Shown here: positions 53,469-64,000 of the stretch, in pieces | Layout of the letters: each line of letters begins with the position of its first letter | Position numbering within the stretch: position 1 is the first letter of the stretch | DNA from: Aggregatilineales bacterium | Lineage (GTDB): Bacteria; Chloroflexota; Anaerolineae; Aggregatilineales; UBA2796 | DNA: 64,000 nucleotides | Assembly (NCBI GenBank): GCA_965246845.1 | Contig: CBDFFR010000004.1 | Span: 213,361 to 277,360 of the forward strand | Reading direction: 5' to 3' | Position numbers and translations under genes: made by a program | The notes under the pieces: model-generated | What the model saw: only the letters and a program-made list of their open reading frames with translations | What the model was told of the DNA's origin: nothing | Databases searched by the model: none

Positions 53469-54038
53469 TCAGATTTCCACAAAAAACTCCCGATCCACCA
53501 AGTAACGCCACAATTCATCGACTTGGGCGGCGGCTGATCCTTGGACAAGCACGCCCATTTCAAAATGCTCTTGCAATCCAGGTTTAGTAAGGTTGGCGCT
53601 GCCGACATATGCACGATTAGCATCGGCAACGCAGAACTTAGCGTGCATACCCAGTTTGGTGGCATCATCGACATTCGATGCAGGCTGAAAAAAGCGAACT
53701 CGCCTCTTGGCAGCGTTACGTAACCTGACCTTATCAAGCGTATCCAGGCCAGCTCCAGTACTCGCCAAATCGATGGCTACTCCTTTGCTGAGGGCGGTCA
53801 GCAGTGCCCCAGCCAACGGCTCTTGATTCAGCCCTTCGCCGGTCTGCATAAATGGAGCAGCCAAGACCAGACTGTGTTCCGCCTGTGCGATTAATGTTGT
53901 GAGCACACCAAGTGTGGTTCGCGTCCCCACTTCATGTGCTATTCGCAATCCGTTGGAGCCAGGTACGGTTATTACTATCTGAACATCTGATTGATCAGGC
54001 ATTAACACCACGAGTCGCATCAAGAAGTGATGGCTCAA
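53469..54038 (-). CDS. drmC: PLD-family (HKD) nuclease, DISARM DrmC-like
   Basis: HKD motif MHAKFCVADANRAYVGSANLT. 189 aa. Overlaps the 3' end of drmB by 44 nt. Confidence 0.7.
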   Translation of the reverse strand: MSHHFLMRLVVLMPDQSDVQIVITVPGSNGLRIAHEVGTRTTLGVLTTLIAQAEHSLVLAAPFMQTGEGLNQEPLAGALLTALSKGVAIDLASTGAGLDTLDKVRLRNAAKRRVRFFQPASNVDDATKLGMHAKFCVADANRAYVGSANLTKPGLQEHFEMGVLVQGSAAAQVDELWRYLVDREFFVEI

Positions 54039-55893
54039 GATAACCGACTATGTCACCTAGTTTGGGATCGCGCCCGCCAAAAACGAATGAACGTCCCAAG
54101 TTCAAATTGAAAAACTGGCAGCTAATTTCTGACAAATGCGTACAAGCATGACAGTTTCCCCCACTATCAGCACAAACTGGATCATAGACACATCGACGGC
54201 TATCCATCACCTGTGTCAACCATTCCACTAAAGACTGTTCAAAAAGCGCGGTTAATGCGCCAATCGTGGCACCAAAGCGATGGCTGCTATAAACCACAAA
54301 AGACAACGATTTTGGCAGCACGTATTCGCTCAAACTATCGCGGTCCAGCCCACATAGCATAGCCGCCCGACGGACACAAAGATGGCTCAACGTGTGCAAA
54401 AGACCAAATACCAACCTGGCATGGGGAGTGTCGCTACCAATTGTCTCCCGCAATGGCTGATCGCTAAACATCTCCACAAAATACGCCTGGTGGCGCAACG
54501 TTTCGGAGCCTGTTCCCTTCGGGAGACGAACATCAAGTCGGTTCACTTGCAGCCATCGGCATACTCTGTCTGCGTCTAAACGAAGCATGATGGCATCGGC
54601 TTGAATCATGTCCACGAAAACCGGGAACTTGTTGTCGTGATCCCGATCCGATGGAAATGGGTTGATGTAACACAACCCAGGTCGATAATCGACTCGGCTG
54701 AAACCGTAAGTAGCGGTGGTTATCGGGAAGTCGGCAACTAGCGTAACACGATCCAGTCCAACGGTTGTCGCCACTTGGCGTGCTTTGGTCAATTCAGAGG
54801 ATTCATCGGCTAGGAGTTGCTTTACGTCGCCGGATTGCATGGGCAGTACCGCTTCAAGCATGTCCTGGCCCGCGTTTTTCCATACATCGATACTTATTCC
54901 GGTTCGTTCCACCAGTGCGTCGGCAATCTTGCTGGGAGTTGATTTCTCAGCGTCTTTCGCTTTTTTGGGCTTCAATTGCGCCTGCATTCGCAAAAAATCA
55001 TCTATCTGCTTCTGGGTGTAGCCCTGCTCACGAAAATAATCCATGTCACTTTCGTTGACGTCAACTACTTCGTCAGCTTGTTTTACAGAGACATACCGTG
55101 CGAAATCAAGTAACCGTTTGTCGCCTACTTCTGGAAATTCAAAATAGGCGGCACTCGAGATGGCCTGCCACTCATCAAGTTCAAGAAATGTGCTCAATTC
55201 ACGGCGCGGCTGGTTTAGTAGCGTTACATGGTGTGGGTAGTACGTTTTCCCAGCGCGGTGAACTTCTACGTTCATAAATTTTGGATTTTGCACTCTAGGC
55301 ACAGGTGTATCCCAACTACACTGTGGGCACCACCCGCCCGACATGCCCTGTGAGGTAGTTCCGCACTTCCGGCAAGTCCACTGGAAGCTCGACATTCTTT
55401 CGCTTCCGCGGGTATCAAGCGCCATATTTGCCCCTGATTCACACTTAGTGCAGTATGGACTGACAGGAAGCAGTGCTCCGCATCTATGGACGCGGACAAA
55501 TCGTAGCTGTACTAAACGCCCTATTTTACAGGTTGGACAAATAGTTGGAATGCTCCCTGACCTGGAGTTATCGTAAACACGCCCACATCTCTTATTTTGG
55601 CACCAAAACGTGAGCGGAAACATTTCTGCGGAAACTTCGAGTGGCTCTACCAGAACGAATGAACCAGCTTTAGAAGATAAGGAATCCGGAAACTGGCGAC
55701 GATGAGTTGGTGCCCAAGCCCTAACATCCCTTTCTATCGCACCCAGCACAAGGGTTTTGTTCAGTTCGGTGTTAGGCTTGGAGCGGATTTCCCGTGTGCG
55801 TGCAATGACACCTGTCCGTTCAAAGTCATAGGTTTGGCCGGGTAGGTGATCAAAAAGAATGGAGCGCTTGCTTCTATCCATTTTACGGCCCAT
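53995..55893 (-). CDS. drmB: DUF1998-domain protein, DISARM DrmB-like
   Basis: 632 aa. Internal CxxC pairs (CPTCKIG..., CTKCESG, CRKCGT, CPQCSW). C-terminal DUF1998-type cluster CVYDPVCADSGGNCHACTHLSEISCQFFN. Its start lies 2 nt after the drmA stop. Confidence 0.7.
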   Translation of the reverse strand: MGRKMDRSKRSILFDHLPGQTYDFERTGVIARTREIRSKPNTELNKTLVLGAIERDVRAWAPTHRRQFPDSLSSKAGSFVLVEPLEVSAEMFPLTFWCQNKRCGRVYDNSRSGSIPTICPTCKIGRLVQLRFVRVHRCGALLPVSPYCTKCESGANMALDTRGSERMSSFQWTCRKCGTTSQGMSGGWCPQCSWDTPVPRVQNPKFMNVEVHRAGKTYYPHHVTLLNQPRRELSTFLELDEWQAISSAAYFEFPEVGDKRLLDFARYVSVKQADEVVDVNESDMDYFREQGYTQKQIDDFLRMQAQLKPKKAKDAEKSTPSKIADALVERTGISIDVWKNAGQDMLEAVLPMQSGDVKQLLADESSELTKARQVATTVGLDRVTLVADFPITTATYGFSRVDYRPGLCYINPFPSDRDHDNKFPVFVDMIQADAIMLRLDADRVCRWLQVNRLDVRLPKGTGSETLRHQAYFVEMFSDQPLRETIGSDTPHARLVFGLLHTLSHLCVRRAAMLCGLDRDSLSEYVLPKSLSFVVYSSHRFGATIGALTALFEQSLVEWLTQVMDSRRCVYDPVCADSGGNCHACTHLSEISCQFFNLNLGRSFVFGGRDPKLGDIVGYLEPSLLDATRGVNA

Positions 55894-55895
55894 TG

Positions 55896-62104: not shown

Positions 62105-62195
62105 TTGTTACTAACTGCATTGCTAACGTTCGATTCTGGAAGCACAAGCTAGTTCAACGTAGTGAAATAGACTTTGTCTTCAAGTGAGTGTACCG

Positions 62196-64000
62196 TCATT
62201 TCTCAAAAGAGGCGGCTGCAAATACGGTAAATATAATCACAGTCACGTAACGATTTTCGTCCAGCTCTGGATAGATATCTTTCAATGTTGTTATTAATGC
62301 CTCTCTGTTTGGAAATCCGTCAGCAATTGCATGGTCATGGGTTAACATCTTAAGCTGACGCCATTGTACAGCGGTTACGTTCACAACTTGGCATTCTGCC
62401 CCACACTCTAGTAAGAGCAGCCCTGGTTTGATCGATTGCTTCCCTTTTCGAATTGTGCTGATCTTCTTGCCTTGTCTAATCGCCCGAAGATACTCGCCGC
62501 GAATTCTGAGTGATTGTGGTTGAGACGCGCCACCTTTCTGCGCTTTCACTTGCTCCATGAAGGACTTACCGCCAATAACCGTGTGATCCCACGCCGTCGT
62601 TAGTTGAATAACAATATCCGGTTTCAATGAGTGCAAAAAATACTGGCAATGTGGCGCAGCAGCGATGACGGTAGCACCGCATTTTCTTGCTATCCGCTGC
62701 AACTTGTCCGCTACAACATTGGCTGTTGCTAGATCGAGATTCGCGCAAAACTCATCTATTAGCCAGACATTAGTCCTTGTAGCAATTAATTTCGCCAACA
62801 TTGCTCGAAATTGCTGACCTTTGCTCAGCTCATCGAACCGTTTGAGATAGACATATGCATCTGAAAGCCCGACCAAGCCCATAATGCGAAGGGCCTCCGG
62901 AACACTTCGATCCGCCAAGATTTCAATGAGGGCCTTTTTCGACCGTATCGGCTCAAATATGCCCGGATGGTAGTTGGTCGGCACTGAAAACTGCCCAGTC
63001 GTTTCCATTTCAATCTGCGTGGGGACTTGGCCTGAACGAGCCAGATAGTCGAGCAGCGTGGTCTTTCCCGACCCCGAAGGACCAATGATCAAGGCAATCT
63101 GACCAGGCTTAATGTTCAAGGTCAGTTCGTTAATAACGGTCGTATCAATCTTATCCGGAGAAATACCAAACGCTTGTTGAACCGCATGACTTTGCTGAGT
63201 TCGTCTGACCTGAGAATGATAGGTTAGCGTGAAATCCTTGAGACAAATAGCCGAGCCAAGCATATCAAGAGCGGGAAGGTCGGGCAATGAATACTTGCTG
63301 GTGGGAGCTATCACCGCCACACGTTGGGCAAGAAATGCAGTTGCTTCATCGGTAAGTCCGCGCATATACGTCGGCTTTGGCAAACTTACGATTTCGTGGA
63401 ATAGAGCAAAATCCCGCAGAGCGCCCTCTAGGGAGAGGTTTTGGAGACGCCCCAGCAAATCATCAATAGTTAGCCCCTCTTGTTCGGCCAGCTTGAATGC
63501 ACGTTCCATTCTAGCTACCTGCTGATCCACAATACCACTCGAGTCTTGCCTGACAATTGTTCCCTCCCTTACGAGATCCACGCGGCTAGTAAGGTATTGC
63601 ATATCCTCATAGACGCGGTTTAGGTTTCCCTCAGTTTCTCCCACAAATGTGTAGCCTGCATGTTCTGCAAAGGGGACGAATTTCAGCATATCGGCAGAGA
63701 TTTCAATGAATAAAGGTTTTAATCCAGCAATCTGCCAACGCTGTGCAGCAAAATCGGCAGCATGTCGCATCATCACTTGCCCCAACCCTAGCCCGCGGAA
63801 TTCCGGATAAATCACACAACGCGCCACACGTACAACGAGGTTGATGTACTTTCGCGTCACATCCATATCCCAGTTCTCCCAACTGATCCCATTCTGCTTG
63901 AACGGGGCGTTGAGAAGGCTGGCACGGGCCTTATTCATGTAGAGCGGGGTTGCTAATTCGATATACCCCAAGACTCGTGGGAAAAGTGGATGAAATGCGC
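62196..64000 (-). CDS. GNAT acetyltransferase + ABC-type ATPase + ASCH (PUA-like) fusion protein, 5' end outside the window
   Basis: GNAT motif A CVIYPEFRGLGLGQVMMRHAADFA. Walker A IIGPSGSGKTTLL, ABC signature LSKGQQFR, Walker B VWLIDEF. The C-terminal module KKISTIRKGKQSIKPGLLLLECG...VNVTAV...DGF is ASCH-like. The frame stays open from 63971 to 64000. Confidence 0.6.
   Translation of the reverse strand, partial: AFHPLFPRVLGYIELATPLYMNKARASLLNAPFKQNGISWENWDMDVTRKYINLVVRVARCVIYPEFRGLGLGQVMMRHAADFAAQRWQIAGLKPLFIEISADMLKFVPFAEHAGYTFVGETEGNLNRVYEDMQYLTSRVDLVREGTIVRQDSSGIVDQQVARMERAFKLAEQEGLTIDDLLGRLQNLSLEGALRDFALFHEIVSLPKPTYMRGLTDEATAFLAQRVAVIAPTSKYSLPDLPALDMLGSAICLKDFTLTYHSQVRRTQQSHAVQQAFGISPDKIDTTVINELTLNIKPGQIALIIGPSGSGKTTLLDYLARSGQVPTQIEMETTGQFSVPTNYHPGIFEPIRSKKALIEILADRSVPEALRIMGLVGLSDAYVYLKRFDELSKGQQFRAMLAKLIATRTNVWLIDEFCANLDLATANVVADKLQRIARKCGATVIAAAPHCQYFLHSLKPDIVIQLTTAWDHTVIGGKSFMEQVKAQKGGASQPQSLRIRGEYLRAIRQGKKISTIRKGKQSIKPGLLLLECGAECQVVNVTAVQWRQLKMLTHDHAIADGFPNREALITTLKDIYPELDENRYVTVIIFTVFAAASFEK

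Follow-up and report, generated by a model that had tools for sequence, protein, structure and literature searches.

A conserved DISARM-like cassette without a methyltransferase begins with an acetyltransferase-ATPase-ASCH fusion gene

Introduction

DISARM systems (defence island systems associated with restriction-modification) are defined by their association with methyltransferases. Class 1 requires DrmD and DrmMI, while class 2 requires DrmMII and has DrmE on occasion (10.1101/2021.12.28.474362). As summarised in that source, Ofir et al. 2018 gave the order drmE-drmA-drmB-drmC-drmMII for the class 2 system of Bacillus paralicheniformis. Here we describe a five-gene cassette from an Aggregatilineales bacterium (contig CBDFFR010000004.1) that has DrmE, DrmA, DrmB, and DrmC but no methyltransferase. 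Instead, the cassette begins with a gene that encodes a fusion of a GNAT (GCN5-related N-acetyltransferase) domain, an ATP-binding cassette (ABC) ATPase, and, at the C terminus, an ASCH domain. The cassette lies at positions 53469-64000 of a 64-kb stretch of the contig. We refer to this whole stretch, which is what we analysed, as the window, and to the first gene as the fusion.

The cassette resembles class 2 DISARM in that DrmE, DrmA, DrmB, and the phospholipase D (PLD) nuclease DrmC are encoded in one tightly packed, co-directional operon. It differs from class 2 in three ways: there is no C5 methyltransferase, the fusion gene precedes drmE, and the Drm proteins belong to a separate clade. 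With class 1 (drmD-drmMI-drmABC, as in Serratia sp. SCBI), it shares the DrmA/B/C core, and its DrmA aligns to the structure 7s9v. Unlike class 1, it has no adjacent SNF2 protein DrmD and no adjacent DrmMI, and it does have DrmE and the fusion.

We are confident that this locus is a genuine and complete DISARM subtype that lacks a methylase and includes the fusion. A literature search, including a 2025 survey of YprA helicases and its supplements, returned no DISARM system that was linked to a GNAT, ABC, or ASCH protein. (The survey mentions “many uncharacterized DISARM-like classes.”) A conserved DISARM subtype with the fusion in place of a methyltransferase is apparently undescribed. An earlier note on this DNA, which was made from the sequence alone, had offered, as one of two alternatives, just such an undescribed subtype with the upstream fusion as a part of it; this alternative is strongly backed by the synteny and co-divergence of 24 loci (see below).

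Results

The cassette encodes a DISARM core and DrmE

The five open reading frames (ORFs) of the cassette are all on the minus strand, and their coordinates agree with the spacing that the earlier note gave. drmE overlaps drmA by 49 nt, a gap of 2 nt separates drmA from drmB, and drmB overlaps drmC by 44 nt. The gap between the fusion gene and drmE is not tight (about 91-100 nt). The note had also described the block as richer in AT than the neighbouring sugar genes, and indeed its GC content is 0.487, whereas elsewhere in the window the value is 0.54-0.55.

DrmA (55896..59528; 1210 aa) is an SF2 helicase of the YprA-like type. It matches the PADLOC profile for DrmA from end to end (3.4e-151), and about 620 of its residues align to the solved DrmA of Serratia (PDB 7s9v; 3.4e-59). 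It also matches Helicase_C from Pfam (1e-8) and has the motifs TGGGKT (at amino acid 541), DELH (at 779), and SAT (at 818). DrmB (53995..55893; 632 aa), the DUF1998-type partner of DrmA, matches the PADLOC profile (2.1e-49) and has several CxxC pairs. It has no match in Pfam at E ≤ 0.01, DUF1998 included, and its match to DrmB_fam from NCBIfam (1.8e-18) scores 66.7, which is below the cutoff of 240. The cassette closes with DrmC (53469..54038; 189 aa), a PLD/HKD nuclease (PADLOC, 4.7e-19; Pfam PLDc_2, 5e-14). Both parts of the HxKxxxxD and GSxN signature are present (HAKFCVAD at 132 and GSAN at 146), and the protein is full length, as the DrmC proteins of homologous loci have 174-182 amino acids. 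The profile matches, the alignment to 7s9v, and the motifs establish drmA, drmB, and drmC as a genuine DISARM triad, with an SF2 helicase, a separate DrmB encoded beside it, and a PLD/HKD nuclease.

The gene upstream of drmA (59480..62104) has an ORF of 874 codons whose product the earlier note had considered unknown and atypical. We found that it is DrmE, which is a marker of class 2: it matches DrmE_C from Pfam (1.1e-43), the PADLOC profile for DrmE (3.6e-11), and DrmE_fam from NCBIfam (90.9 bits, above the cutoff of 80). The true start codon is likely the ATG at 62095, which would give a protein of 871 amino acids, and a protein of this length (P0269) is 100% identical. When solved structures were searched with a profile of DrmE, no relative turned up.

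None of the four Drm proteins reaches the cutoff of its NCBIfam equivalog family for DISARM (64.5 versus 250 for DrmE, 446 versus 950 for DrmA, 66.7 versus 240 for DrmB, and 78 versus 133 for DrmC). They therefore form a separate clade.

Downstream of drmC there is an IS3-family insertion sequence (52072..53258, minus strand) that is not part of the system. Its orfA matches HTH_Tnp_1 (2e-25), its orfB matches rve (1e-20), and it is bounded by 42-nt inverted repeats (52072-52113 and 53217-53258) that are 83% complementary. Beyond it lies a gene for a large serine recombinase (50084..52039). The earlier note had the operon ending directly against mobile DNA. Mobile DNA does follow, but 210 nt separate the stop codon of drmC from the nearer inverted repeat.

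The fusion has intact GNAT, ABC, and ASCH motifs

The fusion gene (62196..64000) extends beyond the edge of the window, so that residues 116-715 are encoded within it. The reading frame is open up to the edge (63998), and the start at 63971 in the ORF list is an artefact of that edge. The full-length protein, P0343, has 715 amino acids and is 100% identical over the 600 residues that are inside the window. We also considered if the fusion might be truncated by a stop codon; we rejected this given the open frame and the full-length protein.

As the earlier note had read from the sequence, the protein has all three domains: it matches ABC_tran (5.5e-15), ASCH (3.4e-12), and Acetyltransf_1 (5e-4) from Pfam, the last with a score exactly at the Pfam cutoff (20.7 bits). 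Within the window, the GNAT core is at approximately 63651-63830, the Pfam core of the ABC ATPase is at 62748-63131, and the ASCH domain is at 62226-62507. The motifs YPEFRGLGLGQ, GPSGSGKTT, LSKGQQ, and VWLIDEF are intact. Across 31 diverse sequences from the family, the acyl-CoA loop, the Walker A motif, the ABC signature, and the Walker B motif are invariant or nearly so. The acyl-CoA loop, which in GNATs binds the pyrophosphate and follows the pattern Q/R-x-x-G-x-G/A, is R-G-L-G-L-G in every one of these sequences, and the ABC domain conserves GPSGSGKTT, LSxGQQ, (V/I)WLxDEF, and an APH motif (the H-loop).

A confident AlphaFold model of a full-length homologue (pLDDT 83.5, pTM 0.80) has, in order, an N-terminal beta-barrel, the GNAT domain, a helical linker, the ABC nucleotide-binding domain, and the ASCH domain. 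When we compared the full-length model to other structures with Foldseek, the results were swamped by ABC transporter domains. The GNAT sub-model is similar to AAC(6')-Iy, HAT1, GNA1, and Hpa2 (with a probability of about 1 but E of only about 4e-3). The ABC domain matches nucleotide-binding domains at E of about 1e-12, and the beta-barrel weakly resembles cold-shock or OB domains. Many cyanobacterial copies that sit in a DISARM context have an N-terminal HTH_17 domain.

The best match of the ASCH profile in the PDB is E. coli YqfB, an N4-acetylcytidine (ac4C) amidohydrolase (2e-7). The substrates of YqfB are ac4C nucleosides that arise when RNA is turned over. Its essential residues are K21, T24, and R26, and it also has the acidic E74 and Y89 (PMC6972931); the first four positions supply a Thr-Lys-Glu triad and an Arg oxyanion hole. 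Among 141 ASCH domains from the fusion family, 126 have the lysine, 123 have the threonine, 126 have the arginine, 125 have aspartate or glutamate at the position of E74, and 127 have the tyrosine, so each is kept in 87-90% of the domains. At the catalytic positions, the residues of the fusion in the window are K, T, R, H, D, and Y. From these residues, the ASCH domain is predicted to be active.

The five genes are inherited together

We identified 24 non-redundant loci, including the one in the window, that contain all five genes (loci were considered non-redundant if their DrmA proteins were less than 95% identical). The order is the same in all of them: GNAT-ABC(-ASCH), DrmE, DrmA, DrmB, and DrmC. 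The proteins of the other 23 loci are 28-70% identical to those in the window, with DrmE as low as 28%. Thus both of the genes upstream of drmA, whose co-occurrence with drmABC in other genomes had been proposed as a check, do accompany it elsewhere.

Three homologues of the fusion at 70%, 62%, and 57% identity are all followed by DrmE, DrmA, DrmB, and DrmC. One of the most distant loci, with a DrmE that is 28% identical (L090), and the locus in Syntrophobacter fumaroxidans MPOB both have a GNAT-ABC gene directly upstream of drmE-drmA-drmB-drmC. The carriers include complete genomes, among them the chromosomes of Altericista sp. CCNU0014 (CP137338.1, at about 5,557,285-5,579,615) and S. fumaroxidans MPOB (CP000478.1). 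In Altericista, the arrangement is HTH_17-GNAT-ABC-ASCH followed by DrmE, DrmA, DrmB, and DrmC, and the cassette sits among metabolic genes. The fusion and drmE are adjacent and on the same strand in every DrmE locus that we examined, and in the other loci, they are separated by anything from a 17-nt overlap to a gap of 24 nt.

The proteins also diverge together. Across the 24 loci, the correlation of pairwise identities is 0.71 for the fusion and DrmE, as compared to 0.68 for DrmA and DrmB and 0.66 for DrmE and DrmA. Each of the five genes has much the same set of nearest relatives to the window (L001, L010, and L002), with L005 in third place for DrmB. The invariant order and orientation, along with the co-divergence, show that the cassette has long been inherited as a unit, of which the fusion is an integral part.

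A search that started from DrmE yielded 74 homologues. A scan of viral contigs gave one weak match, and scanning genome contigs with a DrmE alignment gave just one locus, as the patterns were too strict. There are hundreds of homologues of the fusion, mostly of 715-775 amino acids. We also searched 1.84 billion cluster representatives with a profile of the fusion and found 332 matches at E ≤ 1e-30, and most of these are GNAT-ABC proteins of about 610-640 amino acids that lack the ASCH domain.

In every homologous locus, the cassette ends with drmC, and the gene that comes next varies: it may encode a HEAT-repeat protein, UDG, alanine racemase, an ADPRT-Tse2 protein, or a transposase. The flanking ORFs include integrases, ArdC, and a portal protein, which indicates mobile contexts. 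A few individual loci have features of their own. In S. fumaroxidans (L091, 18105-21716), there are DDE transposases between drmB and drmC as well as after drmC, and in one Kamptonema assembly (L007:8465-11036), DrmE is split into two ORFs; both are signs of decay. In Altericista sp. (L095:21165-21587), a gene with an ADPRTs_Tse2 domain and a small ORF are right after the cassette and may be a toxin-immunity pair that travels with the island.

No methyltransferase accompanies the cassette

The earlier note had remarked that no methyltransferase adjoins the operon, and our motif scan of the window agrees. There is no methyltransferase in the operon, and a six-frame scan of the 64-kb window found no signature of a C5 methyltransferase. 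The window has a single ORF with an NPPY motif, a type IIG-like enzyme (33660..37019) that is 16 kb from the cassette. In particular, the C5 methyltransferase of class 2 (DrmMII, pfam00145) is absent from the operon, and the positions before drmA where class 1 has the SNF2 protein DrmD and the N6 methylase DrmMI are taken by drmE and the fusion. The locus has the core genes and DrmE and lacks the methyltransferase of either class, so it should not be placed in class 1 or class 2.

The same is true of the homologous loci. We compared 69 flanking ORFs from 20 of them to Pfam and found no C5 methyltransferase. Two of these ORFs match N6_Mtase, and each is an HsdM beside an HsdS, or in other words, an adjacent type I restriction-modification system. 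Tables of Pfam matches for four loci (L005, L090, L091, and L095) have no methyltransferase within 10 kb, and motif scans of the homologous loci found none either. (A strict regular expression for methyltransferase motif I missed known HsdM genes, and we discarded it.)

The earlier note had raised the alternative that the system was truncated by the IS3 element and the integrative element, in which case homologous loci should have drmMI or drmMII where these elements now sit. We did not see this. Because drmC is intact, and because the DNA downstream of it varies across the homologous loci and contains no C5 methyltransferase, we reject truncation by IS3.

The fusion heads other nuclease cassettes

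We also scanned metagenomes with the fusion as the anchor and annotated the resulting 80 loci with local hidden Markov models. For the 62 loci with enough flanking sequence, the fusion is beside a PLD nuclease and a motor ATPase in 59 cases. By type, 29 are DISARM-type loci, 24 have a HerA-type cassette, six have a second clade of DrmA/B/C, and three have no recognisable partner. Besides the DISARM type, then, the fusion heads two further cassettes with a PLD nuclease and a motor.

The HerA-type cassette (L015, L017, L037, L054, L062, and 19 others) is apparently unnamed. It comprises GNAT-ABC(-ASCH), a HerA-like DUF87 ATPase (PADLOC mad8, 3e-16), a protein of about 410 amino acids with no family match, a PLD nuclease, and an AAA/KAP-like ATPase of about 390 amino acids (for example, L037:9959-16547). 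In a motif scan, one of the 24 loci (L015) had an ORF with a methyltransferase-like motif; the flanks of these loci were not checked against Pfam. In the second clade (L077, L079-L082, and L085; for example, L080:1-8333), a GNAT-ABC protein without ASCH is encoded beside a divergent DISARM-like set: a PLD protein of about 290 amino acids, a DrmA-like helicase of about 866 amino acids (PADLOC DrmA, 5e-57), a DrmB-like protein of about 464 amino acids, and a 567-aa protein of unknown type. The GNAT-ABC gene and the set are, for the most part, divergently transcribed in these loci.

Versions of the module also exist on their own. On the megaplasmid of Thermomicrobium roseum (NC_011961.1, L089, 10981-13262), a standalone GNAT-ABC gene (625 aa) is convergent with a gene for a 136-aa ASCH-domain protein, and there are no Drm genes nearby. 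The association of GNAT-ABC with ASCH therefore also exists as neighbouring genes. SSU5-type phage-plasmids (943 records in PLSDB) and phages of about 110 kb from Rhizobium, Pseudomonas, and Stenotrophomonas encode homologues of the fusion in two separate ORFs, one for an ABC protein of 214 amino acids (2.6e-49 against the profile of the fusion) and one for a GNAT-like protein of 298 amino acids. The pair thus resembles a version of the module that is split and is carried by phages. In a Klebsiella oxytoca plasmid (CP056499.1, L094, 3658-7079), which is the one such region that we inspected, the split genes follow two ParB-like genes. Methyltransferases are likewise spread over restriction cassettes, orphan genes, and phages. 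The distribution of the module across restriction-like cassettes, orphan genes, and phages parallels that of methyltransferases.

Other defence genes and mobile elements in the window

The window contains a second defence cluster (27414-37019, mostly on the minus strand). It encodes an HKD and SNF2 helicase protein (27414..30647, minus strand; PADLOC C3a139, 2.6e-64; DrmD, 5.6e-33), a DUF5131 protein (31513..32415, plus strand; PDC-M41B/M30B, about 1e-39), a HEPN protein of the AbiU2 family (32297..33082), and the 1,119-aa type IIG-like restriction-modification enzyme of the Eco57I/MmeI kind mentioned above (minus strand; PADLOC REase_MTase_IIG, 5.4e-118). Next to this cluster, a protein with DUF2726 and a Top1 zinc ribbon (37170..37919) adjoins a NERD-UvrD helicase (38058..40100; PADLOC C3a187, 3.8e-30), and this pair may be another defence module.

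Between the defence clusters there is a plasmid-like module (42027-52039) with a PrimPol-AAA_25 protein (42027..44942), a ParM/Alp actin-like protein (45384..46457), a ribbon-helix-helix protein (46904..47704), and the large serine recombinase that lies beyond the IS3 element. A megablast search of positions 41000-64000 against plasmids gave no match. An Alp protein and a DUF927 primase are also beside the cassette of one Kamptonema locus (L005:1889-8439). Because Alp and a primase adjoin both cassettes, this suggests that they are carried on related mobile elements.

Large serine recombinases are encoded at two more places (13095..14816 and 16404..18416), upstream of sugar-utilisation genes at 19.6-27.5 kb (ROK, an ABC sugar transporter, GH15, and GH31). 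Another gene (8212-9900) encodes a 562-aa protein with two immunity-type SUKH (SMI1/KNR4) domains. As a whole, the window is a mosaic of mobile DNA.

Discussion

A possible role for the fusion

We infer that the fusion occupies the slot that DrmMI and DrmMII have in classes 1 and 2. Judging from its domains and motifs, it might be a module for acyl modification of nucleic acids, and we hold this view tentatively, as somewhat doubtful. The earlier note had raised the idea of a self-marking module that does not rely on methyl groups, which is plausible. A more specific and less likely version is that GNAT-ABC(-ASCH) would acylate N4 of cytosine in DNA and would carry its own reader or eraser, or that it would be a related enzyme that acylates bases, and that the acyl group would be the signal for self. 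The same version would have acyl marks serve this DISARM subtype and the two other PLD-nuclease cassettes, with the split form acting in counter-defence by phages. For the whole account, which joins the methylase-less subtype to acyl marking by the fusion, we consider the case for and against to be nearly balanced, with a slight tilt against.

Under this proposal, the GNAT domain would use acyl-CoA to acylate a base in a nucleic acid, with N4 of cytosine as the likeliest target. The ABC ATPase would power or gate acylation, by analogy with TmcA and NAT10, which are writers of ac4C that combine an ATPase with a GNAT. The YqfB-like ASCH domain would read, proofread, or remove the N4-acyl mark. 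DrmE, DrmA, and DrmB would load onto unmarked DNA and block it, much as DrmAB does with unmethylated DNA that has 5' single-stranded ends, and the PLD nuclease DrmC would assist.

Several points weigh against acyl marking. We know of no established DNA N-acetyltransferase from bacteria, and acyl modification is put forward here as a proposal only. The GNATs of defence systems are often toxins that are directed at proteins or tRNA, and ASCH domains often bind RNA. It is also hard to see why a writer would be joined to an eraser that is apparently active. Our GNAT sub-model resembles generic GNATs only, with no specific likeness to TmcA/NAT10 or Mom. Many DISARM-linked copies of the fusion, such as those in L090 and L091, have no ASCH domain, so this domain is not essential to the core function. 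Scans for promoters and terminators were uninformative, as the counts were the same as in shuffled controls. In MADS, the ABC-like ATPase mad3 sits on the toxic restriction side rather than on the modification side, although the fusion resembles mad3 only locally. Furthermore, class 1 DISARM tolerates the loss of its methylases (10.1101/2021.12.28.474362), so a DISARM core might do without any self-mark.

Several of these points would fit a different role in which the fusion is integral to the system but is not a self-marking enzyme: it could be a sensor, a regulator, or a second effector. It may acetylate a protein of the phage or the host, an aminoacyl-tRNA, or another RNA, or it may hydrolyse N4-acyl-cytosine compounds, with the DrmEABC core telling self from non-self without a covalent mark, perhaps by way of 5' single-stranded DNA ends. 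We view this family of explanations as the main rival and a serious one, though somewhat doubtful in itself. In its favour, proteins or RNA are common targets of GNAT and ASCH domains, the substrates of YqfB come from RNA turnover, and many DISARM-linked copies do without the ASCH domain. A trigger loop and single-stranded DNA ends gate DrmAB (10.1101/2021.12.28.474362), the place of mad3 points the same way, and GNATs that are fused to components of Dnd systems are treated as possible co-effectors in analyses from the Aravind lab (PMC10853773). On the other hand, the fusion heads three different cassettes with a nuclease and a motor, consistently without a methyltransferase; orphan and phage-borne versions exist, the latter beside genes for ParB-like DNA-binding proteins; many copies have the N-terminal DNA-binding domain HTH_17; and we saw no antitoxin-like partner. 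Heading three cassettes, the ParB-like neighbours, and HTH_17 fit an enzyme that modifies DNA better than they fit a toxin.

We consider each of the remaining explanations improbable. The type IIG-like enzyme and the HKD-SNF2 helicase of the second defence cluster might serve in trans, which would make the window a scattered class 1-like DISARM. These proteins are on the same strand as the cassette and have secondary PADLOC matches to DrmMI (1e-42) and DrmD, respectively, but they are better matched by the type IIG family and by the candidate C3a139. They are also 16-23 kb away, past the plasmid-like replication and partition module, IS3, and the recombinase; their order is wrong for class 1; and such neighbours were not found by homologous cassettes. 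This makes it very unlikely that they complete the system. Still less probable is that the locus was a class 2 DISARM that lost drmMII when IS3 and the recombinase element inserted after drmC. These elements are directly downstream of drmC, DrmE is a marker of class 2, and drmMII reportedly follows drmC in the Bacillus system. Yet drmC is full length and is 210 nt from the end of IS3, and the cassette also ends at drmC in the 23 other non-redundant loci, where the neighbours are varied and none is a C5 methyltransferase. Finally, it is hardly credible that the fusion is a mere neighbour with no functional link to DrmEABC. The gap of 91-100 nt before drmE and the family members without Drm genes might suggest this. 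However, all of the DrmE loci that we examined keep the two genes adjacent on the same strand, even where DrmE is only 28% identical, the spacing elsewhere is far tighter (at most 24 nt), and the co-divergence of the fusion and DrmE equals that among the Drm proteins themselves.

Why the subtype matters

The subtype spans several phyla and always has an acetyltransferase-ATPase-ASCH-type protein where a methylase would be, which provides an experimental handle. One outcome would be that DISARM cores work without a covalent self-mark. The other would be a new non-methyl mark on DNA or RNA in bacterial immunity, possibly N4-acyl-cytosine. To our knowledge, reports of N4-acyl-cytosine are limited to RNA and to the DNA of plants. 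If an acyl self-mark is true, it would amount to an acylation-based principle of restriction-modification. Knowing the function of the fusion would explain several systems at once, as it is also found with two other nuclease cassettes, in phages, and in phage-plasmids, and it could add a new class of enzyme to the tools for modifying nucleic acids.

Comparison with related enzymes and modules

The RNA cytidine N4-acetyltransferases TmcA and NAT10, which are ATP-dependent, are like the fusion in logic only: they combine an NTPase, a GNAT, and a module that binds nucleic acids, and the YqfB-like ASCH domain of the fusion implies the same ac4C chemistry. Unlike the fusion, whose ATPase is of the ABC type, TmcA and NAT10 have a RecD-like helicase domain as their ATPase. 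They were absent from the PDB sequence and fold matches of the fusion, and we do not assign the fusion to their family.

YqfB itself (1te7/9kyf) is the best match in the PDB for the C-terminal domain, and the counterparts of K21, T24, R26, acidic E74, and Y89 are kept. YqfB is a free-standing enzyme of nucleoside salvage with 103 amino acids, unlike the ASCH domain here, which shares a polypeptide with a GNAT and an ATPase and is encoded within a defence operon. There are also differences at the active site, as aspartate replaces E74 and, in the fusion family, aspartate usually replaces H70.

A GNAT fold can also act on DNA bases: Mom of phage Mu is a GNAT-fold enzyme that modifies adenine in DNA. 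In the BREX-related “BRC” systems, GNAT/TGT modules have been proposed to be the modification apparatus (NAR 2026, PMC12839542). These modules are the nearest conceptual precedent for the fusion, as a GNAT-fold enzyme would confer a non-methyl mark on DNA in a restriction-like form of immunity. Both Mom and the BRC modules differ from the fusion in that they have no ABC or ASCH domain and work with other partner systems. We regard both as precedents in concept.

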